Under the pieces are notes generated by a model. It did not search any database and had not been told where the DNA came from. It worked only from the letters and a program-made list of their open reading frames with translations. Shown piece after piece: positions 4,096-38,794 of a stretch of DNA of 47,956 nucleotides (the first letter of the stretch is position 1; each line of letters opens with the position of its first letter). A program made the position numbers and the translations under genes. Source of the stretch: Klebsiella phage VLCpiS13a; the sequence record NC_071152.1, one strand, 5' to 3'.

Positions 4096-5184
4096 ATGGA
4101 AAAGATTATCTTTACGAAAGGCCTGATCACCAACTCGCAGGTGGTTAAAGAGCAATGGCGTCACCTGACTGTTGACCGCAAGGTTTTCATCAATGGTGAA
4201 AATGCTCTGGCGAAAGAATACGGCGTGAACGCCACCGCGCTGGTAACGAAAGACTACTGGCGCGAAGTGGATGACGTGACCACCCGCGTATTCCGCAACG
4301 AGTCCGGCATGGACATGATGGCCGACCTGATGACGCTGGCGACCAACATCAATATCGGTAAGACCGTGGCAATTAGCCGCATGGCATCCGATGCTGGTAA
4401 GGTTGTGCGCACCATCTCCGGTCAGGAGCCTGAAGACCTCGATAAAACCCGCTATTCCTACAGCGGCGATGTAATCCCGATCTTCAAAACCGGCTATGGC
4501 CGTGAGTGGCGTGAGCTGATGGGCATGCAATCTGAAGGTTTCGACCCGCTGATTGATGACCAGGAGAGCACCACCTTCAACCTGCGCGCAGACATGGCGG
4601 ATTATCTGCTGGTCGGCGATGCAAGCCTGAACGTGAACGGCGTTTATACTGCTTACGGCATCACCAACCACCCGAACACCGTGCAGCTTAACCTGAGCGC
4701 TTCCGGCACTGGTGCGCTGAACATCGACCTGCAAACTGCAACCCCTGATGAAATCGTTGAGTTCTTCAACCAAGATTTCCAGGCGGTTCTGGATGCACAG
4801 AACGTGTTCGAGCCGGTTACTCTGTGGGTTTCTCCGTCTGTGCGTCGATCCTTCAGCCGTCCGTACTCCAACGCGGCAGGCTTCAAAGGCGGCACCATTG
4901 AGGATTACATCCTCGCATTCGGCAAGACCGGCAACGTTGGCCGCATCGCGTCTATCGGCACCAACTTCAAACTGACCGGGAACCATTTCGTCGGCTATGT
5001 GAAGAATGCGCTGTATATCCGCCCTCGCGTCGCTCAGCCGGTATCTACCTATGCAGAGCCGCGTACCACGCCTCACGCTAACTTTAACTTCCTGACCTGG
5101 GCTGCTATGGGCCTGCAAATCCGTAAGGATTTCAATGGTCGAAGCAAAGTTTTCAACGGCTACGGCACGCAAACCGCGCTGTAA
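4096..5184 (+). CDS. major capsid protein
   Basis: 362 aa, strong host-like codon bias, SD AAGGAG, followed by strong terminator; position after scaffold. Confidence 0.7.
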   Translation: MEKIIFTKGLITNSQVVKEQWRHLTVDRKVFINGENALAKEYGVNATALVTKDYWREVDDVTTRVFRNESGMDMMADLMTLATNINIGKTVAISRMASDAGKVVRTISGQEPEDLDKTRYSYSGDVIPIFKTGYGREWRELMGMQSEGFDPLIDDQESTTFNLRADMADYLLVGDASLNVNGVYTAYGITNHPNTVQLNLSASGTGALNIDLQTATPDEIVEFFNQDFQAVLDAQNVFEPVTLWVSPSVRRSFSRPYSNAAGFKGGTIEDYILAFGKTGNVGRIASIGTNFKLTGNHFVGYVKNALYIRPRVAQPVSTYAEPRTTPHANFNFLTWAAMGLQIRKDFNGRSKVFNGYGTQTAL

Positions 5185-5450: not shown

Positions 5451-6281
5451 TTGGGGGTTATCATGGCTGTCAGGTACGAAATAAACACAACTCCGGCTGA
5501 CGGAGAGGTTTTGCTTAGCGAAACTATGTCAGCGGACTGGACTGCATTGCAGGTGCAGATTGTGCCGTTAAACTCTTCCGGAGGTCACGAACCATTAACA
5601 AGCGGATCTGTTTCCGTAATGGTATCGCCGTTTGCATCTGGTGACTTCTGGATTGACGTCAACAATAATAATTATTATGGCGTGGCATTGCGACTGAAGG
5701 TGATCAAGTCTCAGCTTCCTGCTGGCGTTGCATCCCTGAAAGTCCTAGTGTGGCGAGCTGATACCTCAGTGCCATCAAGTCAGGTTGTCGCTCAATCATA
5801 TGCCGAGCTTGCTAATAAGCAGGGTAAGTTATTCACTGCATCTCGTCGCGTGGCTGACGTCGCTGGCGGCGCCAACCTTGACAGCATCTTTATCACAGGC
5901 TCAAAACAGGTCGTATTTAACCAGCGAATCATCGGCTACACCGGAAAGGGCGTCATTGCGTCAATTTACCGTGGAGCTGTAGCCACTGGAGGCGCCGCTG
6001 CGGAGATTAACAACCCCAACGACATAGCGCCGCATACTGCAACGGCACAGCTTCTGACTGGCTCTACGGTGACAAGTATCGGTCAGCTGACGGTGGCTGC
6101 GACGTATAGTGAAGGGAACGCATCTAATCAGGGGCAGGGTAATTCGCAGGCAAAACTTGGTGAGCAGGCCATCATGGCGCCTAATACCACCTATCTGTTG
6201 CGCATTACGTCACTGGATACTGCGGCACAAAATATCAATGCTTACGTTTCGTGGTTTGAGGATGACGCTTATCTTCCGTGA
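5451..6281 (+). CDS. hypothetical head-region protein
   Basis: 276 aa; same RBS context GGTTATCATGGC as gene 5227; Ala/Gly/Ser/Thr rich. Confidence 0.5.
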   Translation: MGVIMAVRYEINTTPADGEVLLSETMSADWTALQVQIVPLNSSGGHEPLTSGSVSVMVSPFASGDFWIDVNNNNYYGVALRLKVIKSQLPAGVASLKVLVWRADTSVPSSQVVAQSYAELANKQGKLFTASRRVADVAGGANLDSIFITGSKQVVFNQRIIGYTGKGVIASIYRGAVATGGAAAEINNPNDIAPHTATAQLLTGSTVTSIGQLTVAATYSEGNASNQGQGNSQAKLGEQAIMAPNTTYLLRITSLDTAAQNINAYVSWFEDDAYLP

Positions 6282-6287
6282 TAAAAG

Positions 6288-6314
6288 AAAAGCCCCAGAA
6301 GGGGCTTTGTTTAC
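6288..6314. terminator. bidirectional rho-independent terminator
   Basis: AAAGCCCC-AGAA-GGGGCTTT with A-run upstream and T-run downstream. Confidence 0.7.
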
Positions 6315-6562
6315 TTATGGTCGCGAAGTTGAATGAGATTATCAATCAGCCTCTGAATTGAGGCGTTGTCTTTAAATGTGATGTAAATTTCAGACTCATC
6401 AGTATCATTAGTTTCATCACCTGGAATGCCGCGATTTATGGTATTCGCAAAGGCTATTAACTTTTCACCATTGCAATATCCAGCTTTAATGCCAACATAA
6501 CCACCTCCAAGGCGGGCAACTTTTGAGCCATCGCCCTGAGTAAAAACGCCATTCTTTTTCAT
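6311..6562 (-). CDS. hypothetical protein (cassette gene 5)
   Basis: ATG 6562 two nt after stop of clamp-like gene; 83 aa. Confidence 0.5.
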   Translation of the reverse strand: MKKNGVFTQGDGSKVARLGGGYVGIKAGYCNGEKLIAFANTINRGIPGDETNDTDESEIYITFKDNASIQRLIDNLIQLRDHK

Positions 6563-6564
6563 CA

Positions 6565-7101
6565 CTAAATCCTCATTGGCATAACGATAACTTTTGCAGT
6601 CTCGCCAGTAGGCGCACTGATGTTTGCGACGGCGGCGTTGATATAGCCGTTCAGTTCGAAGAGAACGCTTTCAAATTTCGGGTTAAACAACTTCGCCAGC
6701 TTCTCAACATCTGCCAGATATTTGGCATTAAAGCCAATCTGTTCTGCTGGCGAAGTCTTCTTCGGGATGACGCGATCAATATCGGGGTAATTGCCATCAA
6801 TTTCAGAACAAATGCCCGCACCAACCATCGCCTCATGTTCGTCATGGTAGGTGACAATGTTTGTTTCAGTGTCCAGTAACGCATAGGAATAACGCTTAGT
6901 TGGCGACTTGCTTACTGACACGATGACGTTACTTTTTATCTTGTTTTCGTGCTTACTGGCAATCATGGCGCGATGACCGTCAGTAGCGGCAACGCGACCA
7001 TCAGGCATAAAGCAGATACCGTTCAGGTAGTAACGTACATCCTGTTTGGCCTGGAACATCAAAGCGCCTTCGAGTAATAGCTTACTAATCTTCAATTTCA
7101 T
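6565..7101 (-). CDS. DnaN (beta sliding clamp)-like truncated protein: domain II plus C-terminal half of domain III
   Basis: Motifs shared with E. coli DnaN recalled from memory: QDVRYYLNG, ATDGHR, DGxxPDxxRV(I/L)PK, IGFNxxY(L/V)xDV, C-terminal VMPMR(I/L); MKLKIS start at 7101 with GGTGAAAAA SD (ORF extends to 7143). Confidence 0.7.
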   Translation of the reverse strand: MKLKISKLLLEGALMFQAKQDVRYYLNGICFMPDGRVAATDGHRAMIASKHENKIKSNVIVSVSKSPTKRYSYALLDTETNIVTYHDEHEAMVGAGICSEIDGNYPDIDRVIPKKTSPAEQIGFNAKYLADVEKLAKLFNPKFESVLFELNGYINAAVANISAPTGETAKVIVMPMRI

Positions 7102-7274
7102 TTTTTCACCTTCACCATGTGTTGTTTTGCAACCTTCAGGCATTCATCGAAAATCTTGCCTTTCTTTTCACTCTGGTTGCGCCTGTAGTGGATAATTGCA
7201 GCCTCTATGGCCGCGTTGTCGATGCCTGGCAGTTTTTCGCGCAGGTTTTTCTCTATGAATTTTTCTGGTGTCAT
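7098..7274 (-). CDS. hypothetical small protein (58 aa)
   Basis: ATGA overlaps at both ends couple it between the Cys4 gene and the clamp-like gene. Confidence 0.4.
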   Translation of the reverse strand: MTPEKFIEKNLREKLPGIDNAAIEAAIIHYRRNQSEKKGKIFDECLKVAKQHMVKVKK

Positions 7275-7621
7275 AAATCATTCTTATCCAGTAATCCAAG
7301 GTTATACATCTTTTTAGCATACTTGTGGTCGACCAACTCTCCACCGACCTTGTTTGCAGCATCGCTAACCTTACTTCCAGGCTCAAACCATCCGGTTTCC
7401 TTTTCCCTATCGGTTAACTCCCTTTTGTCAAGGTAGCTTATTTCAGATGCCTTGCATGATTCGCAATAATATGGCCCGCACTGGACAAGACCGACGCCAA
7501 CGTCGACAAAATCAGCAAAGCAGTGCTCATACCCGCAGTATGGGCATATTGCTTCGTCTGGCTCCCATATGCTTTTGTGATTAGTGCTAAATTCATGTCT
7601 ACCAATCCCAGTGCTCATCAC
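7271..7621 (-). CDS. Cys4 zinc-binding protein
   Basis: CPYCGYEHC ... CGPYYCESC; ATGA overlap with upstream gene. Confidence 0.5.
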   Translation of the reverse strand: MMSTGIGRHEFSTNHKSIWEPDEAICPYCGYEHCFADFVDVGVGLVQCGPYYCESCKASEISYLDKRELTDREKETGWFEPGSKVSDAANKVGGELVDHKYAKKMYNLGLLDKNDL

Positions 7622-7818
7622 AGCTTCTCCAGAATAGCCAGCACTTCACTCAACTCAGCAGATGGAAGGCGCAAAAACTCCTCGGTCTCCTGTGCCACAT
7701 GACCCTCAGCAACCACCATATGATCTGCTTCTTTCAGCAACTGAATAAGGCGGTCAATCGGCTTTGCCTTGTCTTCTGCTGGGTTATCGACATTAAACAT
7801 CTTCATCACCTCTAACAT
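7618..7818 (-). CDS. acidic small protein (first gene of cassette)
   Basis: SD GAGGTGA before ATG 7818; 66 aa, Glu/Asp rich. Confidence 0.5.
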   Translation of the reverse strand: MLEVMKMFNVDNPAEDKAKPIDRLIQLLKEADHMVVAEGHVAQETEEFLRLPSAELSEVLAILEKL

Positions 7819-7840
7819 TTATTATTGTTTCTACATCATC

Positions 7841-7869
7841 ACTATAGCGACACCCTCAATCTACGTCAA
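7841..7869 (-). promoter_or_regulatory. sigma70-type promoter TTGACG-N17-TATAGT with conserved TAGATTGAG spacer element
   Basis: Reverse complement of 7841-7869 reads TTGACGTAGATTGAGGGTGTCGCTATAGT; about 20 nt upstream of SD/ATG 7818. Confidence 0.5.
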
Positions 7870-7876
7870 CACTTTA

Positions 7877-25049: not shown

Positions 25050-25547
25050 TCAAAACGGAATATCATCATCCATCGGCGGCTCGTTTGCTGGTGGTTTTTG
25101 TATGTTTGATGGTTGCTGAGGTTTACCCCATCCCGTTTGCTGATTGCTTCCTGACTGTTGCCGCTGCTGTGATTGTTGGTTTCCATTATCACTTGATTTA
25201 CCACCAATCATTTGCATAACACCGTTCATCGGCTGCAAGACAATTTCAGTGGTGTACTTTTCAACGCCGCTCTGGTCTGTCCATTTACGGGTGCGCAATT
25301 TACCTTCAACGTACACCTGAGAGCCTTTGCGCAGATATTCGCCAGCTACCTCTGCCAGCTTTCCGAAGATAACCACGCGATGCCATTCAGTTTGCTCTTT
25401 CTTTTCCCCTGTCGCTTTATCGTTCCACTGCTCTGATGTTGCCAAAGACAGATTGCACACGGCGCCACCAGATGGCATATATTTAACTTCAGGGTCTTGC
25501 CCAAGAGTGCCGAGAATGATGACTTTATTGATTCCACGAGATGCCAT
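25050..25547 (-). CDS. ssb: single-stranded DNA-binding protein
   Basis: OB-fold SSB motifs, Gly/Gln-rich linker and C-terminal DDDIPF tail. Confidence 0.95.
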
Positions 25548-25556
25548 AATTTACCC

Positions 25557-26597
25557 TTAAAAGTTTTCGATGTTTTGCTGAGATGTTGATGGCTTCTCTT
25601 CGGTTGCAGATGGCGAAGGCGCATCTGCTTTCTGGAGTTTGGCCGGGTTGAAATCGTCCTGCGGTGTGATAGTTACCGCTGCTGGCGATTCGTCATTAAT
25701 GAATGATTCAATGCGCTCATACTCCTCTGCTGATGCCTTGAGTGTTGACCATATTTCCCTGATTTTCTTTTTAACTGAATCTGGAATATTTGCAGCCTCA
25801 GCATTCAGTGCCGCAACTCCGCGTGAAGCGGTCATTTGCAACTTTGAGCGCCAATGATCAAACTCTTCATCAATCTTAACGCCAGACTCAACCCATTTAA
25901 TTAAACCTCGCCCATGCGCTTCACCAATATACCCATGATGCTGGCTGTCGCGACCTGATTCAAAAAATATCGGGCGCAGTTCTTCTGGTAGCTTGGTAAA
26001 ATCCTGAATCTTGCCATTGTCATACATCATCATGCTGACGGTCATTTCAAACATGAAATCCTTCTCACATACCGGGTGCAGACCAAGTGGCATAGGGTCT
26101 TTTGGGTTGCTGAAGTCGGTTTTATTGCGCGCACGCAGGCAGACGATGATATGCATATTGCTTTGTAATAATGCACTCATGAACTTCTTATGCTCAGCCT
26201 TGGCGCGCTTCCAGTCTGCCATTTTTTTTCCTTGTAGCAGCGGCTGATCGGCTATATCTGAGCAGCCGCCTTCCCCTTCCCATTCATGCGAACCGGAATC
26301 GATAACCAGCACTTTAACGCCTGCTTTTTGAAACTCTTCGATTGCCTGGCGATAACGGGCAGGACTAAATGGCGCATACAAATCAGCATGCAGGAATTTT
26401 CCATCAAGTATATTTGAATAAAGACGTCCGCGACCGTTTTCCGTGTCCAGAAAACCGATTTCAGACGGTGAGTCAACCATGCCGCGCGCAAGTTTGAGTG
26501 CGCTGTATGTCTTACCACTACCAGACTGGCCGGAGATGCCAATAACTACGCGAGAACCTGAACGTTCAGCAGGCTTGATATCAAGAATTCCCATCAC
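25557..26597 (-). CDS. Sak4-like recombination ATPase (AAA_24 family) with C-terminal extension
   Basis: Walker A GISGQSGSGKT then FLDTENG; adjacent to SSB and exonuclease. Confidence 0.7.
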   Translation of the reverse strand: MMGILDIKPAERSGSRVVIGISGQSGSGKTYSALKLARGMVDSPSEIGFLDTENGRGRLYSNILDGKFLHADLYAPFSPARYRQAIEEFQKAGVKVLVIDSGSHEWEGEGGCSDIADQPLLQGKKMADWKRAKAEHKKFMSALLQSNMHIIVCLRARNKTDFSNPKDPMPLGLHPVCEKDFMFEMTVSMMMYDNGKIQDFTKLPEELRPIFFESGRDSQHHGYIGEAHGRGLIKWVESGVKIDEEFDHWRSKLQMTASRGVAALNAEAANIPDSVKKKIREIWSTLKASAEEYERIESFINDESPAAVTITPQDDFNPAKLQKADAPSPSATEEKPSTSQQNIENF

Positions 26598-26617
26598 TTC
26601 GCCTCATTTACTATAAA

Positions 26618-27574
26618 TTACAGGTTAAATTGCTTTTTGAACCATTCCGGCGTTTCCATTTCGATTACCGGGTTTCCCATTGAATAGCCAGGCCATGAAT
26701 TGGCTTTTTTGCACGCCTTATAGATTTCCATTGCGCTTTGCAGCTGAATTCTTCCAATGCGAAGTTGCTCATCAGTAAGGCGAATAAGCGCAGGGATGAA
26801 TGGCGATTTTTTCTCCTGCACCAGAAGGTTAACCGAGCGCGGAGCATGACCGTAAGCCTCGACAAACATATCGTGTTGCATCGCCATCTTCATAAAGTAT
26901 CCCAGCCGCGCAGCATGGCGGAAAAACTCATCAGGCTTGGCGCTCACCGCCGTTTTGTAGTCGATAATGTCGCCGCCGCGCGTAAGGCAGTCAAATCGCA
27001 CCTTGGATGGCTCGCCAAGCAAATCACCGAGAATAGACACCTCAGAGTAAGCACCAGCCAGCAAACTGCCGTAATAGCTGTTTGCGTGGATTACAGCTCG
27101 CATCTGCATGATGGCGTCATAGTCATTTCCTTCAAGCATATGCTTGCCAGTGGCGGTCTTCTCTGCTTCTTCACGAATAACATCATAAATCAGCACTGCC
27201 TCTCCAGTGGACTGAATAATTTTAATCACTTCGGCTTTAGTCTTACCTGAAAGACCTTTGATGCCGCGCTCTTTCGCCCATGAGTTCATGTCGGAAGCAG
27301 TTACCAGCACCGTGCAATTACCATCTTTGTCTCTTGGAAAATCTTCGACAACTGGCATACGGGCATATTCTGCTTCGAATCGCTCAGGCTCAAGCAGTGC
27401 GGTATGGCTACCAGTACCAAATATTAGAGCCTTTGACTGCTCATCTTCTTCGTCTTTGTAGCGCCACGCTGCGGGGCATCTGTCATACAGATTCCATAAT
27501 CCAGAGCCGTTGATGTGCTCTGTGTCAGCGTGATACTGGTTATTGCTGAGTTCGTTGTTTAAATAAACTTTCAT
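26618..27574 (-). CDS. PD-(D/E)XK recombination exonuclease (RecE/Cas4-like)
   Basis: 318 aa; RFDCL ... DIIDYKT catalytic motif; position in recombination module. Confidence 0.7.
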   Translation of the reverse strand: MKVYLNNELSNNQYHADTEHINGSGLWNLYDRCPAAWRYKDEEDEQSKALIFGTGSHTALLEPERFEAEYARMPVVEDFPRDKDGNCTVLVTASDMNSWAKERGIKGLSGKTKAEVIKIIQSTGEAVLIYDVIREEAEKTATGKHMLEGNDYDAIMQMRAVIHANSYYGSLLAGAYSEVSILGDLLGEPSKVRFDCLTRGGDIIDYKTAVSAKPDEFFRHAARLGYFMKMAMQHDMFVEAYGHAPRSVNLLVQEKKSPFIPALIRLTDEQLRIGRIQLQSAMEIYKACKKANSWPGYSMGNPVIEMETPEWFKKQFNL

Positions 27575-27598
27575 CCATCACCTCTTTTTATTGTTAAA

Positions 27599-27613
27599 TC
27601 AATCTACATCAAG
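27599..27613 (-). promoter_or_regulatory. variant conserved promoter element (TTGATGTAGATTGA) for leftward recombination operon
   Basis: Reverse complement TTGATG-N16/17-TAAAAA then GAGGTGA SD and ATG 27574. Confidence 0.35.
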
Positions 27614-27618
27614 CCACG

Positions 27619-28035
27619 TCATTCATCAAGCCCAAAATAGAATAACGTCGCTCTTTTTAACTCCTCAATACCATAAGCAATGGCTCCAAAGTGACCCTCT
27701 GCGATGGCGCACTCAAGAACCTCAATCTGTGATGGCGATACATTTGATTTTGTCTTGTCACGGCGCTTCAGTTCAATTAGGCCGCATTTATGATTAACAC
27801 CGTTGGTGAGTATCAAATTATCGCTTACGCCGCTCCTTACACCCATTTTGCGGCGTTTCTCGACGAATTGAGGACCGCTCTTTGTGCCTGTCTCATTAGG
27901 AACATGGAACCACAGAACATCAGGAAATCGGTATTGCATCCAAAGGCCATAGGCCATCTGGTCGGTCTCTTCTTTAGGGCATTCTCCACGATAACCGCTG
28001 TCAAATACCCATATCCCGCTGTCAAGCTGCTTCAA
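27619..28035 (-). CDS. VRR-NUC domain nuclease
   Basis: 138 aa; GVSDNLIL ... GLIELKR PD-(D/E)XK-type motif. Confidence 0.75.
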   Translation of the reverse strand: MKQLDSGIWVFDSGYRGECPKEETDQMAYGLWMQYRFPDVLWFHVPNETGTKSGPQFVEKRRKMGVRSGVSDNLILTNGVNHKCGLIELKRRDKTKSNVSPSQIEVLECAIAEGHFGAIAYGIEELKRATLFYFGLDE

Positions 28036-29959
28036 TTTGTTCTCCTATGAAATCCTTGCGGTGGATGATATCGCGGCCTTTATCGTTAAAACGATGCGTG
28101 ATGCGTTTAGGTGCGCGGATTAAACCGGCGTAATGCATGAAAGTCTTAGCATCATGGCAGTCCATCATTTTCTTCAGCATGGACTTGTCTTCAAGATGCG
28201 GAAGCAGAGCCTTCATTTTAAACATGTCGCGCAGGTGCTTTGGCTTGCCTCCGAACGGATAAAACACCTCATTTGCCCAGCCGGTCTTTCCATCAGCTTT
28301 TACCACCAGGTAACGATAAAGAACCCCCTCAGCGTCTTTGGTCAACTCGACTTTAAAATCTTGTACATCTGTCCATTCTTTATCGGTATAAGCACGCTCA
28401 TTAAGCGCCGCGTTAGGGTCGCGTAAAACGTGATCGCATTGACGGCAATAACGAGCTGTTGGGTCATTTTTTGTGCCGCAACCATCATCAAAAATACGGA
28501 TACCATGCTTGTCGAAACCACAGCGAATGAAGCTGAAAAACTCTTCGCAACGACCATCCTGCGACGTTGAATCTTTACCGATGCAACGCCGTGCATATGG
28601 GCTGTTCATCGTCTGGCATTTAGGGCATGGAACCTGCTCTCCGCTGCGTTTTGCGCGCTGTGCTTCTGCTTCTTCCAGAATTGGGTCTTCATACAGCTGA
28701 CCAAGTTCAAACATCGTACCAGAGAAATCAAGGACCAGATGGTCTTCTTTATGATACCCGGCGTCAATGTGCTCTTTTTTAAGGAGCCGCATACCGCGAC
28801 CTAATAGCTGCACAAGAAGGGTAAGTGACATTATTTTCCTTAGCACGACTGAGCAATCCCAAAGAGGGATGTTAACGCCAGTAGTTAATGCAGCAACCTG
28901 AAGTGTGTATTTTATTTTTCCTGTATATGCGTCTTTAAGCGCCTTTCTCCTGGCTTTCATGCCCATATCTTCTGTCACTATGGCATAACTTCCCTCAGGA
29001 AGACGTTTGGCCACATCTCTGCAATGTCTCTTTCCGGCACATGTAATTAGAACCCCGTTTCGATTAGAAGTAAGCGCGATAACTTTTGCCATGATTTTAT
29101 CGAGCTTGTCATCTTGTTTGAGAATGCTATTTTCCATTTGTTTCAGCTGCTCAGCTGTAAAGTCTTGAGTACCGTCAACATCAGAACCATGAAAATCTGA
29201 CAGGTCGTATTGCAAATCATCCGTATCATTTAGACCAAAGATTGTTGGAACAACGAATCCGCGATCAACCATGTACTTAGTATCAATGTTAATTATCTCG
29301 TGCTTCCAGTAAGCGCCCTTCATTGATTCAGTCCCGCGGAATGGACTTCCAGTGAAAGCGATTGTGATCATGTCGTGTCCATACTTCGCCTTGCACCGTC
29401 GATTTAGCTCAGTGAGTATCACACCATATTGTGTTGTTGGATTATCACTAACAACATCCTGCCACGGAACTTGGTGACCTTCATCGCACAGGCAGAATCT
29501 AGGAGTGAAATCTGACAGGTCTGATTTTTTGATTACTTCACCTGATTCATCTTTTTTGTCAAAAAGAGAATTTATAATTGTTCCTTCTGTGGCGCAAATT
29601 ATTGGATATGCAGTACTCTTTCGCCCTAGAGACGCGCTATACAGAGAATTTTTAACACCAAAGTTCCAGAGCTCACTTGCATCCTGGTCAATAATTTCAG
29701 ACTGTCTGGCAATGACAAGACCATCCCATCCCATATCTTGAAATCTGCTGCACAGCATTGAAATCATCACGGTTTTACCGCTAGAAACAGAAGCAGTAAC
29801 ATAGCTTGGTTTAGGGTCTTTACCAAAGTTGCGGATTACTTCTGCGCACTTGGCATACACCAGCCACTGGTAATCATATGGCTCTATGAGCCCCGGCTTG
29901 ATAGATTGCTTTAACTTTTCAATGTCAAGCTCTGCAATCATTTTGTCTATTTTATGCAT
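28022..29959 (-). CDS. SF2 ATP-dependent DNA helicase with C-terminal zinc-ribbon region
   Basis: Motif I SVSSGKT, motif II DEGH, later helicase motifs; CPKCQT..C and CRQCDHV zinc ribbons. Confidence 0.85.
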   Translation of the reverse strand: MHKIDKMIAELDIEKLKQSIKPGLIEPYDYQWLVYAKCAEVIRNFGKDPKPSYVTASVSSGKTVMISMLCSRFQDMGWDGLVIARQSEIIDQDASELWNFGVKNSLYSASLGRKSTAYPIICATEGTIINSLFDKKDESGEVIKKSDLSDFTPRFCLCDEGHQVPWQDVVSDNPTTQYGVILTELNRRCKAKYGHDMITIAFTGSPFRGTESMKGAYWKHEIINIDTKYMVDRGFVVPTIFGLNDTDDLQYDLSDFHGSDVDGTQDFTAEQLKQMENSILKQDDKLDKIMAKVIALTSNRNGVLITCAGKRHCRDVAKRLPEGSYAIVTEDMGMKARRKALKDAYTGKIKYTLQVAALTTGVNIPLWDCSVVLRKIMSLTLLVQLLGRGMRLLKKEHIDAGYHKEDHLVLDFSGTMFELGQLYEDPILEEAEAQRAKRSGEQVPCPKCQTMNSPYARRCIGKDSTSQDGRCEEFFSFIRCGFDKHGIRIFDDGCGTKNDPTARYCRQCDHVLRDPNAALNERAYTDKEWTDVQDFKVELTKDAEGVLYRYLVVKADGKTGWANEVFYPFGGKPKHLRDMFKMKALLPHLEDKSMLKKMMDCHDAKTFMHYAGLIRAPKRITHRFNDKGRDIIHRKDFIGEQIEAA

Positions 29960-29962
29960 AGC

Positions 29963-30529
29963 TCACCCTAAATTAACAAACTCTTTATGATTAACCACCA
30001 TGAATTCACGAATCGCCTTTTCTGCTGATTCTATGGTATTAAACAAGCCAAGATGAATCCTCTTCTTGTTTATTGATGTCTGCGCTCTCCATTTGTTGCA
30101 TCTTTTATCGAAATGCACACCTTTTACACCAGATTTATTTGTTGATTTCTTTTTCATGTTGAACATGTTTTGTTGATGACTGGAAATTCTAAGGTTACAA
30201 ATTCGATTGTCTGACTTATCACCATTTATATGGTCTATTTCATGCCCATCTATGTCTTCTCCATAAACATAAATCCATGCCAATCTATGCGCGAAAAACA
30301 GCCTTGATCCAACCCTTATTTTTATGTACCCACGTGAGTTTTTATATCCAGCAATATCTCCTGGCTTGACATTTCTTGAGTTGCCATTAATCCACTTAAA
30401 AACCCCAGTGTCAGGGTTGTAATCAAGAGCCTCCATAAGCCTTTCCTGTGAAACCTTTAGCTTTTCTTTCTTCCCTGAAGTTTTTAAGTCTGCATCCTGA
30501 GCAGCAGAACTCAGCTCTTGATGTTCCAT
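29963..30529 (-). CDS. HNH homing endonuclease with AP2 DNA-binding domain
   Basis: HNH_3 motif YIKIRVGSRLFFAHRLAWIYVYGED..EIDHINGDKSDNRICNLR and AP2-like GVHFDKRCNKWRAQTSINKKRIHLG. Confidence 0.85.
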   Translation of the reverse strand: MEHQELSSAAQDADLKTSGKKEKLKVSQERLMEALDYNPDTGVFKWINGNSRNVKPGDIAGYKNSRGYIKIRVGSRLFFAHRLAWIYVYGEDIDGHEIDHINGDKSDNRICNLRISSHQQNMFNMKKKSTNKSGVKGVHFDKRCNKWRAQTSINKKRIHLGLFNTIESAEKAIREFMVVNHKEFVNLG

Positions 30530-30587
30530 GAAATTCTCTCCCGCATTGTTTGCACTTCTTCAATGTGATAGCCATTTGTTACCCTCA

Positions 30588-30616
30588 ATATTAAACCCAG
30601 TTGCGTTTCATGTCAA
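30588..30616 (-). promoter_or_regulatory. consensus sigma70 promoter TTGACA-N17-TAATAT (leftward, helicase operon)
   Basis: Reverse complement of 30588-30616. Confidence 0.5.
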
Positions 30617-30641
30617 GAACGCTTGCGCGTTTCATGCTAGT

Positions 30642-30670
30642 AAATTACAATGAATCTACATCATAGTCAA
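30642..30670 (-). promoter_or_regulatory. promoter TTGACT-N17-TAATTT carrying TGATGTAGATTC element
   Basis: Reverse complement of 30642-30670; tandem with promoter at 30588. Confidence 0.45.
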
Positions 30671-30682
30671 CTGGAAGAAATT

Positions 30683-31552
30683 ATGCGATACGACTGGAAG
30701 GATATAGAGCCTTTAATGGTTGGCAACTGGCAGGCCGCTATCATGTCGATAGTCAATGTCGATATGCGAATTTTTAATGGCAAGCATCAGCCATGCCCGA
30801 GCTGCGCTGGCACGGACAGGTTCCGCTTTGATGACCATTTAGACTACAAAGGTGACGGCGGCGCCATCTGCAACCAGTGCGGAAACGGCAGCGGAATCAC
30901 CTGGTTAATGAAGCTGTCAGGAATGACGTTTCCAGAGTCAATAGAGGCACTGGCCGGATTTCTGAACATGCATCCACGAGAAAAACTTGAGGCGATTAGA
31001 AAACAACTACCTAAGGTCAACCATGCTTCTGACTATCTGACAGCGGCAGAAGTTGAGGCAATCATGAAAAAAGCAGGCGACGACACCATAACCGGTAAAA
31101 CTGGTGAACTGGTAGCGATACCGCTCTATATGGCAGGCACCATGACGCCATGCAATGTGGCTTTTCTGGCAGATGATGAAAGCGTGTTATTTCGCGCGGG
31201 TTTCAGCTATGAGTACACTCGCGGAAGACTTACGCGAGGCGCTGTTACACCGATTGGTGAAAAAACAGAGTGGACATACCTTGTATCCAATTACTTTGAC
31301 GCATGGCGAGCGCATCGGCTTACTGGCGCTCATGTCTGGTGTTGCTGGTCGCCTGAAAACATGTGGGAAGTTGTTCGCAACGTGAGCGATGAGCAGCGCA
31401 CTAAACTGCGTTGCATCATTAATAATAATTTTGATGAGGTATGTGCCGCCGAGAATGCAGACCTGCCGATACTGATCACTGATGATGGTCAGGATATCCG
31501 CTATAGCAGCGCCATCAGAAAGAGGCTGTATAAACCAGAAGAACTATTTTAG
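30683..31552 (+). CDS. DNA primase (zinc-binding N-terminus)
   Basis: CPSCAGTDRFRFDD ... CNQCG zinc motif; position in replication module; ATG 30683 preferred over upstream ATG 30650 that overlaps promoter motif. Confidence 0.55.
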   Translation: MRYDWKDIEPLMVGNWQAAIMSIVNVDMRIFNGKHQPCPSCAGTDRFRFDDHLDYKGDGGAICNQCGNGSGITWLMKLSGMTFPESIEALAGFLNMHPREKLEAIRKQLPKVNHASDYLTAAEVEAIMKKAGDDTITGKTGELVAIPLYMAGTMTPCNVAFLADDESVLFRAGFSYEYTRGRLTRGAVTPIGEKTEWTYLVSNYFDAWRAHRLTGAHVWCCWSPENMWEVVRNVSDEQRTKLRCIINNNFDEVCAAENADLPILITDDGQDIRYSSAIRKRLYKPEELF

Positions 31553-31556
31553 GCGC

Positions 31557-31594
31557 TAAAAAAACAAACCCTCCATCAGGAGGGTTTGTTTTTA
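31557..31594. terminator. bidirectional rho-independent terminator
   Basis: AAAAAAACAAACCCTCC-ATCA-GGAGGGTTTGTTTTT. Confidence 0.75.
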
Positions 31595-31822
31595 TTCTAT
31601 ACTAATTAAAACGTAACCAGGAAGATATGAGCTTACATCAGCGATATGAACAATTAATTTATCAACCCTCTCTCCTGTGTAATCACCATCCCATTCATAA
31701 AGCGCAAGGATGTCTCCAACCTTAAAATTACGATCGTTATTCCTTAGTTCAGCCCTCTTTAAACCATCAACAACAGGCCAAAAGTATTCAGGTAATATTT
31801 TAAGTTCATGTACTTTGCTCAT
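31592..31822 (-). CDS. ASCH/PUA-like small protein
   Basis: 76 aa, ATGA overlap with upstream gene. Confidence 0.5.
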   Translation of the reverse strand: MSKVHELKILPEYFWPVVDGLKRAELRNNDRNFKVGDILALYEWDGDYTGERVDKLIVHIADVSSYLPGYVLISIE

Positions 31823-33378
31823 TATTTCAGTCTCGGATTCAGGTAAACGGTGTTATTAAGGAATACGCAATATCCATCCTCTTCAAGAGACGGCAAAACG
31901 TTTGACTTGAGTCTGTCATAAATATGCGGTATGCCTTTGAATGGTCTTACATTTTTCAGTGAATCGTACAGCCATTTTACCGTGACATTCGTTTTTCCTT
32001 TTTGCGCAGCTGTGCGCAATTTTTCGGCAACAACGTCAATTTCCGATTTCTCGCCAGCGTATCCATTTGACTCAACGGCATCGGTAAATGTTTTTGTCAA
32101 TGCATCATAAACGCTTATGGCGCGGCTTATATGTTCCTCACCAATAATTTTTGAGCGACGCCCGCCATCGCACCAGTTTTCAGCGGCATGGAATATTGCC
32201 GAAAGCCTGATTATCTGCTTGTCAGCCTTACCCATGGCGCCACGAAGCAAAACGTGATCCCATTTTCCACCTGGCAGGAAATTCTTTTCCCACTGGTTTC
32301 GTAAAAGTCCAATCATACGCTGCGATTCTTTAGCGAGGGAGAAAACAACCTTCTCAGAAGCCACAAGGTTATGCACAAATCTGGCATATTCTGCCTTTAG
32401 TTCTTTAGGCATTGGCTTACTTACCGGGCAATCATTTTCAACATCCCAATGCTCACGATAACCCAACATCGACTGTTCACGAAGCATCAGGAATCGCTCT
32501 GACAACCCGTTACCCCTGTCGCCAGCCGACAGAATGGCATCAATACTTTCATCCTGTGCAATGACGCTGATGTTACCAAGAACATAGCCAGATGAAACAC
32601 CACGACCAACGCGAGCTGAACCAACAAACCCACCGTCCCAGCCTTTCAGGATGACCTCTGCGTTAGACTTTCCGCCATCCTTGCCATATGAAAGGCCAAG
32701 ACAGGTATTTAAAACGCTTGCCTCATCACTTATCAGGTTGAAAAAACCACCCTCATGAATTGCCTGGTGCTGCACCGCTTCTGGCGTCGCATCGGTTAAC
32801 GGGTAGGTAATGGTGTAAAGACTTTCCAGTTTTTCCTTCTCTTTCGCAATATCGTCCCCGATGATGGCTTTCGCGTTATGATTCGTCGCTTCCTTGTAAG
32901 CCTTCATCAGGTCTTCAATGCGAATGTTTATTTTTACAATTTCCTTCTCCATCTTTTTTGACAGGTTGTCATACTCAATTTTTATCGGGTTCATGTGCAT
33001 TGAGTTGATAGCTGTCTTGCCAGCTGATGGCGGCTGCGACGTCACCACATACAAGGAAACGGGTAACTCAGAGCCATAGTATTCAACGCTAAAGTTTCTG
33101 GTCATGGCACTTGCTACGCAGCCAAGCAGATGCATGAATGACGTGCTAACAGGGAATTGCACAGCCCTTGCCGCTGCCACTGAGTAGCGAGTTATCAGGT
33201 CTTTCCTGTTGTCACTGGTAAGCTCTATCTCTGAGTATGTTACATCATTCTCCTGACCTTCCTTGATTTCTGGCCACATGTTATGGCTTGGTGTCATGCC
33301 ATGATGAATGGCTACGCGCGCCGCAGAGGTGTGCGCTTCTCTTGCCTGATTGAAGATTTCCTGTGCTGTAATCATCAT
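31822..33378 (-). CDS. replication-module protein (DUF3987-like, P-loop-like PSAGKT motif)
   Basis: 518 aa, in replication module next to primase. Confidence 0.45.
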   Translation of the reverse strand: MMITAQEIFNQAREAHTSAARVAIHHGMTPSHNMWPEIKEGQENDVTYSEIELTSDNRKDLITRYSVAAARAVQFPVSTSFMHLLGCVASAMTRNFSVEYYGSELPVSLYVVTSQPPSAGKTAINSMHMNPIKIEYDNLSKKMEKEIVKINIRIEDLMKAYKEATNHNAKAIIGDDIAKEKEKLESLYTITYPLTDATPEAVQHQAIHEGGFFNLISDEASVLNTCLGLSYGKDGGKSNAEVILKGWDGGFVGSARVGRGVSSGYVLGNISVIAQDESIDAILSAGDRGNGLSERFLMLREQSMLGYREHWDVENDCPVSKPMPKELKAEYARFVHNLVASEKVVFSLAKESQRMIGLLRNQWEKNFLPGGKWDHVLLRGAMGKADKQIIRLSAIFHAAENWCDGGRRSKIIGEEHISRAISVYDALTKTFTDAVESNGYAGEKSEIDVVAEKLRTAAQKGKTNVTVKWLYDSLKNVRPFKGIPHIYDRLKSNVLPSLEEDGYCVFLNNTVYLNPRLK

Positions 33379-36769: not shown

Positions 36770-36836
36770 TAGCGGAAAAATAGCGGAATATTGATGGGTT
36801 TTATCTATGGCTAAAAAACTATTCAGTAGCGAAAAT
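36770..36836 (+). repeat. three direct repeats TAGCG(G)AA(A)A spanning small terminase start (candidate pac/terS site)
   Basis: TAGCGGAAAAA 36770-36780, TAGCGGAATA 36781-36790, TAGCGAAAAT 36827-36836. Confidence 0.4.
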
Positions 36837-37226
36837 CAACCACAGAATAAGCGCGGGAAAGACAAGCGAAAGCTGCTTGTGGAGGCTCTTGAGCGCAAAG
36901 GATTCAGCGAGGAAAAGCTGTACGATACCATTATTGAGATGGCAATGATTGAGCGCGATACCGCAATGATGAAGGAGCTTATTGTGCGATTCAGCCCACT
37001 GCCAAAGCCTGTTGCACCTGTGTTCGAGGTTGACTTCCCTGACGATGGTACTCCGGTAGAAAAGATTGACGCGGTTATCCGTGGCATTGCATCTGGCATT
37101 ATCCCTGCTGACATTGGAAAGATGTTTGCAGAGGTAATCAAAACCGGGCTCGATGTAGCGGAAGTCACCGAGCTTGCAGCGCGCCTTGAGCGACTGGAGA
37201 AGCTGCTGGAGACGCAGAATGTTTAA
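36807..37226 (+). CDS. terminase small subunit
   Basis: 139 aa, basic N-terminus, C-terminal coiled-coil, immediately upstream of large terminase. Confidence 0.55.
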   Translation: MAKKLFSSENQPQNKRGKDKRKLLVEALERKGFSEEKLYDTIIEMAMIERDTAMMKELIVRFSPLPKPVAPVFEVDFPDDGTPVEKIDAVIRGIASGIIPADIGKMFAEVIKTGLDVAEVTELAARLERLEKLLETQNV

Positions 37227-37374
37227 GCTATCAATGACATTAATGGCCTTAGCCATGCTCATGTTTGCTATGGGTGATAAGTCAAACGAGATTGCATTTG
37301 CGATATGGGGCATTATGTTCATGATGTCAGCGACAATAATTACTATTGTTGGAACTTCGCGCCATGGCTCGTAA
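37219..37374 (+). CDS. small membrane protein between terminase genes (speculative)
   Basis: MFKLSMTLMALAMLMFAMG hydrophobic; overlaps terS stop and terL start. Confidence 0.3.
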   Translation: MFKLSMTLMALAMLMFAMGDKSNEIAFAIWGIMFMMSATIITIVGTSRHGS

Positions 37375-38794
37375 GCGCCTTTCCGCACTGGCAATCGAAA
37401 AGCTGGAGGCTCAGGTGGATGATGCGATGACCGAGGTCGCAGAATCTGCCATCTTCGGCATTTGCGATATGCAGAAGAACGTCATTAAGCGCCTAAGGAT
37501 GACCGCTAACGGCGTTGAAGATGTAACCCATGCAACCACGCAGGCCGACCATTTAATCCCAGCAAAACTCGAACGATTGCTTTATCCGAAGCGTAACAAG
37601 ATAGCCTTCGGGGGTAGGGGATCATCTAAGACCAGAACAGTAACCACCATACTGACTGAGAGAGCGAGATTTAAGCCTGAGCGCATAGCCTGCTTCCGCG
37701 AAATTCAGCAGTCGATTGAGGACAGCTCATATCAGGAACTAAAAGACGAAATTGACCGGAAGGGCGAGACAAAAGAGTTTCGCATAATCAATAACGAGAT
37801 AACCCACAAAGCAACAAAGGCAAAGTTCCGATTTAAGGGATTGTATCGTAACCAAACAACCGTTAAGGGATTTGCGGGTATTACCGTGGCATGGGTGGAG
37901 GAAGCCGAAAACGTCAGCCAGACGAGCTGGGAAATCCTGACACCAACCGTTCGCGCCGAAGGCTCTGAGATATGGGTGACGTTCAACCCCAATAAGGAGC
38001 ATGACCCGACATGGAAAATCTGGGTGGAGCCTTTTTATAATAAATTGCGCGAGAATGGCGGTATTTACGAGGACGAAGAAAACCTGATTATTGAGTGTAA
38101 CTATTCAGATAATCCATGGTTCTGGGATACGCCACTTCCAAGCCAAATGCAACGCATGAAAGAGACAGACTTCGACCGCTATCAATGGGTGTGGGGTGGC
38201 CGCTTTAACAAGCGTAATGACGAGCAGGTCTTTGGCGGGAAATGGCGCGTTGCTGATTTTGAGGTTAAACCGGAATGGCATGGGCCTTACTTCGGCATGG
38301 ACTTTGGCTTTTCTGTCGATCCTACTGCAATGGTTGAAGTTTATATCGAGGAATTACATGGTGGCAGGCGCAACGTTTATATTAATCGGGAATATGGAAG
38401 GGTAGGGCTTGAGGTGACGGATACGCCAACCGCGATGGAACAAGCCTTTCCACTGGCCAGACGCAGCAGATGGTATGCAGATTGCGCGAGGCCGGAAATA
38501 ATAAGCCACATTAAACGCGCTGGCTTTGATATCCATCCGTGTAATAAGTGGCCTGGATGCGTGGAGGAAAGGATTATGTGGCTTCGCGGATGCGACTCAA
38601 TCATCATTCACGAAAGGTGTAAGGAAATGCAGAATGAAGCCATGATGTACAGTTATAAAGTGGATAAACTAACTGGCAACGTCCTTACCGATGTTGTCGA
38701 TGCCCACAACCATTTCTGGGATGCGACCGCTTATGCTCTAAATGACCACATCGTGCAGCGCGGCTCCGGATGGATTAGGCGGAGCAGGAGATAA
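37364..38794 (+). CDS. terminase large subunit
   Basis: Walker A GGRGSSKT; 476 aa from ATG 37364 (ORF open from TTG 37346); C-terminal nuclease-like region. Confidence 0.85.
   Translation: MARKRLSALAIEKLEAQVDDAMTEVAESAIFGICDMQKNVIKRLRMTANGVEDVTHATTQADHLIPAKLERLLYPKRNKIAFGGRGSSKTRTVTTILTERARFKPERIACFREIQQSIEDSSYQELKDEIDRKGETKEFRIINNEITHKATKAKFRFKGLYRNQTTVKGFAGITVAWVEEAENVSQTSWEILTPTVRAEGSEIWVTFNPNKEHDPTWKIWVEPFYNKLRENGGIYEDEENLIIECNYSDNPWFWDTPLPSQMQRMKETDFDRYQWVWGGRFNKRNDEQVFGGKWRVADFEVKPEWHGPYFGMDFGFSVDPTAMVEVYIEELHGGRRNVYINREYGRVGLEVTDTPTAMEQAFPLARRSRWYADCARPEIISHIKRAGFDIHPCNKWPGCVEERIMWLRGCDSIIIHERCKEMQNEAMMYSYKVDKLTGNVLTDVVDAHNHFWDATAYALNDHIVQRGSGWIRRSRR

Follow-up and report, generated by a model that had tools for sequence, protein, structure and literature searches.

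The ligand pocket of the bacterial beta sliding clamp, DnaN, is a hub that organises the polymerases, the clamp loader, Hda and the mismatch-repair proteins, and it is also an antibiotic target. In Escherichia coli, an internal start in dnaN yields a second product, beta-star, which is N-terminally truncated, begins close to where domain II does, has both remaining domains in full and is reported to work as a ring. Here we analyse a phage-borne relative of the clamp in a 47,956-nucleotide (nt) stretch of DNA from Klebsiella phage VLCpiS13a (NC_071152.1; this whole stretch is hereafter the window), where one gene of a small minus-strand cassette encodes a protein of 178 amino acids (aa) that we call the mini-clamp. 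An earlier note, written from the sequence by a model, had taken this protein for a truncated DnaN homologue and a possible device for taking over host replication. Our analysis indicates that the mini-clamp is a genuine DnaN derivative that unites domain II with the C-terminal half of domain III. The reading that we favour, to which we assign a probability of roughly one half, is that it acts as a non-ring, pocket-only docking module that captures host proteins carrying clamp-binding motifs, most probably while on DNA.

The kinship with DnaN emerges from sequence and from fold. When the mini-clamp was compared with all PDB sequences using phmmer, only beta sliding clamps were returned, with the best matches to the Enterobacter and E. 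coli DnaN proteins (E 4.8e-12). In the phmmer alignment, residues 7-150 correspond to DnaN 136-285, and a second, weaker stretch pairs residues 120-178 with DnaN 315-366, including VMPMR(L/I). The motifs shared with E. coli beta (QDVRYYLNG, ATDGHR, DGxFPDxxRVxPK, IGFNxxY and V(V/I)MPMR(L/I); HMMER E 4.8e-12 to 8e-12) are far beyond chance, and the resemblances listed in the earlier note are real. The match to the family phrog_3007 spans residues 1-178 against a profile of 190 positions. Scores against the curated clamp models fall below their cut-offs (PF02767, 19.7 against 27; PF02768, 12.7 against 27; TIGR00663, 41.9 against 137.65, with E 6.2e-11), and the Pfam scan found no N-terminal clamp domain in the mini-clamp. 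A family profile, built from the window protein and 87 diverse homologues at 27-50% identity (88 sequences), matched E. coli DnaN with an hhalign probability of 99.5% (E 3e-22), covering residues 125-252 and then jumping to 315-366. For this comparison we used a 366-aa sequence that we take to be that of E. coli DnaN, and which agrees with the fragments printed by HMMER. An AlphaFold2 model computed from the 88-sequence alignment reached a predicted local distance difference test score (pLDDT) of 96.9 and a predicted template modelling score (pTM) of 0.90, and all of the top 50 Foldseek matches in the PDB were beta clamps. Both the DnaN match and the clamp fold, which had been named as checks on the proposal, were therefore obtained.

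The model also refines the architecture. DSSP assigns it only two long helices, at residues 7-16 and 126-139, compared with six in DnaN. A 9-residue loop with a conserved proline joins the strands at 59-63 and 73-77, at the place where domain II of DnaN (2POL structure) carries its second channel-lining helix (alpha2). The absence of domain I and of the first half of domain III had been recognised from the sequence; to these losses that of helix alpha2 from domain II must be added. The mini-clamp is best described as a structural unit centred on the boundary between domains II and III, comprising the pocket together with its supporting sheet and helices. With regard to the N-terminus, the start at MKLKIS (178 aa) is favoured over an upstream ATG at 7143 (192 aa) because diverse homologues start at the equivalent residue, and because this start codon overlaps with the preceding stop codon and has a ribosome-binding site, AAGGTG, 6-7 nt upstream of it. 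The suggested equivalence of this start to that of beta-star is approximate only, with M1 aligning near DnaN 125-130.

In DnaN, subsite I of the pocket is formed by R152, L155, T172, G174, H175, R176, L177, P242, R246, V247, V360 and M362, subsite II by H175, N320, Y323, V344, M362, P363, M364 and R365, and the dimer interface by I78, F106, I272 and L273, with R103, E298 and E304 (PMC11139829). The most conserved columns of the 88-sequence alignment are the equivalents of pocket residues, which are kept in 69-87 of the 88 sequences. They include R23 (DnaN R152; 85/88), L26 (L155; 79/88), T40 (T172; 80/88), G42 (G174; 87/88), H43 (H175; 83/88), P106 (P242; 87/88), R/K110 (R246; 78/88), N125 (N320; 69/88), Y128 (Y323; 80/88), M174 (M362; 86/88), P175 (P363; 84/88) and R177 (R365; 77/88). 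Judged by sequence, the pocket for clamp-binding motifs is intact in the mini-clamp at both subsites, in line with the expectation that the protein-binding cleft had been kept. The companion claim, that the C-terminal strand preserves the dimer interface, does not hold, since this strand belongs to the ligand pocket. All of the interface residues listed above lie in missing parts of the protein, namely domain I (I78, R103 and F106) and the segment equivalent to DnaN 253-314 (I272, L273, E298 and E304).

Four conserved basic residues that are specific to the family (K19, K134, K137 and K142) map to the two helices that remain, or close to them, and the median isoelectric point (pI) of the family is 8.4 versus 5.25 for DnaN; together, these properties hint at contact with DNA. 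The ratio of nonsynonymous to synonymous substitution rates (dN/dS) is 0.08 between the window gene and that of Klebsiella phage vB_Kpn_ZC2 (ZC2), and 0.12 between ZC2 and the Skatevirus seszw. The mini-clamp gene is under strong purifying selection.

Deposited genomes of seszw mutants allowed us to reconstruct whether the gene is needed. These genomes, dozens in number, come from a CiPGr genome-reduction study in which about 92% of the removable seszw genes were gone by transfer 32 (PMC9825161). The seszw coat gene (at least 99% identity) is present in 72 records and the mini-clamp gene, seszw_16, in 47. Clone 160S retains seszw_16, and clones 170S, 180S, 230S and 290L, the last with large plaques, are without it and without the upstream seszw_17, while seszw_18 (ParB-like) and seszw_19 are kept. 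As these deletion mutants are viable, the mini-clamp is an accessory protein that the replisome does not require in laboratory growth. On this ground we rejected an essential place in the replisome, and the notion of an indispensable takeover device is likewise contradicted. A natural counterpart is found in phage Vi II-E1, whose cassette is without the mini-clamp. The genes of the seszw cassette were unequal in their ease of loss: seszw_17 alone was gone from many earlier clones, the mini-clamp disappeared at about transfer 160-170, and seszw_18 and seszw_19 were still present at 290. The late loss of the mini-clamp is compatible with a modest fitness contribution and equally with inefficient editing, and clones 160S and 170S are not isogenic.

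The replication and recombination genes of the window (25050-33378) encode a single-stranded DNA-binding protein, a Sak4-like annealing protein, exonuclease VIII, a primase and two helicases; a gene for an HNH endonuclease lies between those of the primase and one of the helicases. Across the window as a whole, no DNA polymerase gene was found. For a phage without its own polymerase, interplay with DNA polymerase III (Pol III) of the host is plausible. Among the proteins of the window, the only strict match to a clamp-binding motif is QLSLVF in the open reading frame (ORF) at 36819-37394 on the minus strand, which overlaps plus-strand genes including that of the terminase and is unlikely to be a true gene. 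When protein termini were scanned with relaxed criteria, and when 26 proteins encoded next to homologues in eight unrelated contexts were scanned, matches came at about chance expectation, and the matches in ParB-like proteins fall inside the helix-turn-helix (HTH).

The mini-clamp is not confined to a few close relatives. By tblastn, a homologue is present in 245 of 50,697 phage records, and a search of 1.84 billion representative proteins returned 2182 clusters at E<=1e-3, with nearly all of the top 150 being 170-220 aa long. Homologues of 169-219 aa align end to end with the mini-clamp. The window protein is 92-94% identical to Klebsiella phage proteins such as that of ZC2, and 70-94% identical to the mini-clamps of Skatevirus/Roufvirus-like phages. 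BFVD holds many phage proteins of 178-215 aa with the same fold (Pantoea, Serratia and other phages; TMq 0.83-0.89). It also contains bigger proteins that resemble clamps, about 238-266 aa long, in phages such as Seurat, Horus and REQ2. A 289-aa relative of intermediate length (P0264; L017 160-1029) is extended at its N-terminus by about 85 aa and seems to have more of domain III. P0264 and the BFVD proteins of about 240-266 aa suggest a graded series of truncated phage clamps. One other candidate, P0267 (1004 aa, with ten matched stretches), was rejected as a WD40-repeat false positive.

The gene itself is not new, as it belongs to a large, long-annotated and functionally uncharacterised family. 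The record of Bcep781 gp15 already carries the remark "DNA Pol III b subunit fragment", and the Skate and seszw proteins are labelled "DNA polymerase III beta clamp subunit". The family PHROG 3007 is named 'RusA-like Holliday junction resolvase', and this label is frequent in RefSeq, for example in NC_071151.1 (L002 21338-21916). Pfam and NCBIfam scans of the mini-clamp gave no RusA signature, and the label is a propagated misannotation that is contradicted by the clamp fold. The view that such a clamp was undescribed in phages is therefore only half right: our search of the literature on truncated or DnaN-like phage clamps found no functional study of the family, but hundreds of phage genomes carry an annotation of the protein as a fragment of the beta subunit.

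The genomic settings of the mini-clamp split between replication modules and accessory "moron" slots. In Skate, seszw and ZC2, the same reverse-oriented cassette follows the major capsid gene, and a small basic gene and a ParB-HTH/KorB-like DNA-binding gene precede the mini-clamp. Lone reverse-oriented inserts among head genes are found in Kagunavirus Schulenburg, where the mini-clamp has its own terminators, and in Naesvirus Bcep781. In Skarpretter and Vibrio R19R, the gene adjoins Dam/Dcm methyltransferases. Among metagenomic contigs, the mini-clamp adjoins Phage_rep_O in P0151; it overlaps a DEAD/ResIII helicase in P0209 and is divergent from PDDEXK and DNA_pol_A genes; and it lies between the portal and Mu-F genes, near a Tad2-like gene, in P0171. 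In Dhillonvirus WF5505, the mini-clamp follows an Nmad5 gene (L008 2176-2940; Pfam E 6.8e-55), which lies directly upstream. Cloned Nmad5 of Dhillonvirus is toxic, and one substitution in this protein is enough for escape from Tmn defence (PMC11846954); a functional link between it and the mini-clamp is conceivable. The Tad2-like gene, of the anti-Thoeris family (L013 6919-7164), lies between terminase and portal genes, close to a reverse-oriented mini-clamp cassette. A required link to ParB was considered and rejected, as this neighbour is limited to the Skatevirus/Roufvirus-like group and is absent from the window, and Dhillonvirus has Nmad5 in its place.

In the mechanism that we propose, host RNA polymerase would transcribe the cassette from its conserved sigma-70 promoter, independently of the late structural genes around it. 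The mini-clamp would form no canonical beta2 ring and would not pair with host beta. Instead, it would serve as a free or DNA-associated docking module, with a pocket that may bind clamp-binding motifs of the QLxLF type. Candidate ligands are the alpha and epsilon subunits of host Pol III, the delta subunit of the clamp loader, Hda, MutL and MutS, and Pol II, Pol IV and Pol V; since the phage shows no evident partner motif of its own, the host is the most likely source of the ligands. The conserved lysines and the basic pI may enable the protein to work on DNA in the manner of herpesvirus UL42. By recruiting host factors to phage DNA, or by drawing them away from host clamps, the mini-clamp could bias the host replication and repair machinery towards a phage that has no polymerase, and would in this way act as an accessory fitness factor. 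A wider proposal, to which we give little weight, is that the phage mini-clamps of about 180 aa make up a distinct class of clamp-loader-free tethers for polymerases or repair factors, either UL42-like and non-encircling or assembled as four-protomer rings of 1.5-domain subunits, through which polymerase-less phages would hold the Pol III core of the host, or further proteins that bear clamp-binding motifs, on their DNA.

Several observations weigh against the docking module. The function of the pocket rests on sequence conservation and a monomer model, and clamp-binding motifs are not enriched in the proteins of the phage or in the neighbours of its homologues. Sequestration of Pol III or of the clamp loader would harm a phage that relies on them. 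Moreover, the mini-clamp can be lost without abolishing growth, even in the large-plaque clone 290L, and any benefit in the laboratory is thus conditional or modest. In many phages the gene is found outside the replication module, in the company of accessory or anti-defence-like genes of the head module, and this setting suits a part in counter-defence no less than one in replication. Finally, the basic residues on the retained helices could equally mean ring-like encirclement of DNA by an oligomer.

The alternative that best survives these considerations, though we consider it improbable, is that the mini-clamp is an anti-defence or anti-toxin sponge, presenting an extra beta pocket to effectors, of the host or of a competitor, that work by docking on the pocket of the clamp, and thereby protecting phage replication. 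The pocket is the conserved feature of the protein, the gene is naturally present or absent among relatives, it often occupies reverse-oriented moron slots of head modules near Tad2-like, Dam/Dcm methyltransferase or Nmad5 genes, and its loss would be cheap in a laboratory host that is poor in defences. However, no defence system is known to act through the beta pocket in these hosts, and a decoy leaves unexplained both the placement in replication modules elsewhere and the conserved basic residues of the helices.

More doubtful still is an unconventional sliding clamp, in which four protomers of 1.5 domains (4 x 1.5 = 6 domains), or another oligomer, would form a ring or arc on phage DNA and there make host Pol III processive. 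The domain arithmetic and the precedent of beta-star make this idea attractive, but helix alpha2 is replaced by the 9-residue, proline-containing loop and half a domain is absent, which leaves 8 rather than 12 lining helices; in addition, the canonical interface residues are all deleted, and the gene is dispensable. A capping mechanism, in which the fragment would pair with host beta monomers through a retained dimer-interface strand and cap or poison the host clamp, was put forward in the earlier note and is now very hard to sustain. Because the interface residues of domain I and of the first half of domain III are all deleted, pairing with host beta, or capping it, through the canonical interface is unlikely, and the strand that was thought to mediate it forms the ligand pocket instead. 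A RusA-like resolvase or a decaying, non-functional gene fragment can be dismissed almost entirely, the former having in its favour the name of PHROG 3007 as propagated by RefSeq and against it the Pfam and NCBIfam scans and an unambiguous clamp fold, and the latter being excluded by the low dN/dS (0.08-0.12) and by thousands of clusters of conserved length.

The mini-clamp gene sits within a self-contained cassette that is opposite to the structural module around it and has its own sigma-70-type promoter and terminator (Table 1). Its five minus-strand ORFs are tightly packed, with overlaps of ATGA, GTGA or a single base, and lie where the earlier note had placed a leftward operon, against plus-strand flanks that comprise a capsid decoration gene, the major capsid gene (4096-5184), an ORF at 5451-6281 and the genes from 8031 onwards. 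The promoter and the terminator that it proposed were both recovered by a scan, the latter as a hairpin followed by a T-run. By BLAST neighbours, the phage falls in a Skatevirus/Roufvirus-like cluster and not among T1-like phages, as had been assumed; these small siphoviruses have been described (PMC11990801). The comparison with relatives that had been called for showed the cassette with the mini-clamp in ZC2, Skate and seszw.

Table 1. Coordinates of the cassette features in the window
Feature	Position	Strand	Observation
Hairpin terminator, G+C-rich, common to converging transcripts	6289..6308	.	stem AAAGCCCC/GGGGCTTT detected on both strands
84-aa ORF, last cassette gene	6311..6565	-	ORF exists; no significant family or PDB match
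178-aa mini-clamp	6565..7101	-	domain II of DnaN (alpha2 missing) and the C-terminal half of domain III; phrog_3007, E 2.3e-59
58-aa basic protein	7098..7274	-	phrog_4439 (family without assigned function), E 5.6e-22; pI 9.7; ATGA-coupled to the mini-clamp gene
116-aa Cys-rich (zinc-ribbon-like) protein	7271..7621	-	phrog_6115 (family without assigned function), E 2.8e-26
66-aa acidic ORF	7618..7818	-	in-frame deletion chimera; remnant of a ParB-HTH/KorB-like gene
Promoter, sigma-70-type, TTGACG-N17-TATAGT	7841..7869	-	10/12 matches in scan; candidate driver of the cassette

Both hexamers of the promoter are invariant in ZC2, Skate, seszw and Vi II-E1, and the flanks have diverged. In the region 7830-7872 (minus strand), a 9-mer, TGACGTAGA, overlaps the -35 hexamer. 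ZC2, Skate and seszw have it a second time, immediately downstream of the -10 hexamer; in the window, where the KorB/ParB-like HTH protein is missing, this second copy reads TGATGTAGA. The TGACGTAGA repeats may be an operator for that protein. At the other end of the cassette, the T-run TCTTTTAT follows the hairpin stem on the minus strand, and equivalent bidirectional terminators are annotated after the mini-clamp gene in Skate and Schulenburg.

The cassette proteins other than the mini-clamp drew no informative Pfam, NCBIfam or PDB matches. The acidic 66-aa ORF, which the earlier note had rightly located as a gene of the operon, is a deletion chimera: it opens with the same 7 aa as ZC2 gp45, which heads the cassette in relatives, and over its final 50 aa it shares 98% identity with the C-terminal end of the ParB-HTH/KorB-like protein of ZC2, with about 1.09 kb of ZC2 sequence missing from the window at this point. 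It has no Pfam, PHROG or NCBIfam match. The 116-aa protein gave zinc-ribbon Pfam matches below threshold only and no match among PDB sequences; its gene is found in ZC2 and is absent from the Skate and seszw cassettes. An orthologue of the 58-aa protein lies immediately upstream of the mini-clamp in ZC2, Skate and seszw, and many seszw mutants have lost it alone. The 84-aa ORF had no significant match in Pfam, PHROG, NCBIfam or PDB searches, and a different gene, of 60 aa, occupies its position in ZC2.

These observations bear on how phages deal with a central component of the bacterial replisome. Phages of many families carry a minimal protein that keeps the clamp pocket, with the ring discarded, under strong purifying selection. 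If the pocket is functional, the mini-clamp would be a soluble clamp-pocket domain provided by nature, with which the interactions of the clamp with its partners could be dissected or inhibited. It would also show that polymerase-less phages have a new means of manipulating replication or repair in the host. The widespread RusA-like misannotation hides this family in RefSeq. To the existing annotation our analysis adds the selection on the ligand pocket, the loss of the ring parts and of the second helix, the dispensability of the gene, and the remnant of a ParB gene at the head of the cassette.

Among the closest known systems is the bacterial beta clamp itself (E. coli 1MMI/2POL), which the mini-clamp resembles in sequence, fold, pocket residues and the C-terminal MPMR motif. 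However, DnaN has 366 aa and three complete domains, whereas the 178-aa mini-clamp has no domain I, no alpha2 and no first half of domain III; it is also basic rather than acidic, is without the dimer-interface residues and scores below the Pfam and TIGRFAM cut-offs. Within PHROG 3007 (Bcep781 gp15, Sodalis phage SO-1 gp7, Skate gp41 and seszw_16), many members share the reverse-oriented position in the head module, and the window copy is a full-length member of the same length that differs in nothing substantive, although its cassette, unlike those of relatives, has lost the ParB/KorB-like gene. Unlike beta-star, the mini-clamp is missing a helix of domain II as well as half of domain III, and it is encoded by a separate gene that has diverged.

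The herpesvirus non-ring processivity factors (UL42 of herpes simplex virus, UL44 of human cytomegalovirus and PF-8 of Kaposi's sarcoma-associated herpesvirus) have two full domains and bind their own viral polymerase; they share no detectable sequence relationship with the mini-clamp, for which binding to DNA is suggested by its basic residues. Other phages act on the same host node, with DnaN being inhibited, borrowed or upregulated. Gp168 of phage Twort binds the clamp (PDB 7EVP), MuC of phage Mu uses it for late transcription (PMC12867686), and the small RNA PreS of phage lambda raises DnaN synthesis (bioRxiv 10.1101/2024.10.31.621285). Whereas these three bind the clamp or regulate its synthesis, the mini-clamp is a phage copy of the clamp's own pocket.

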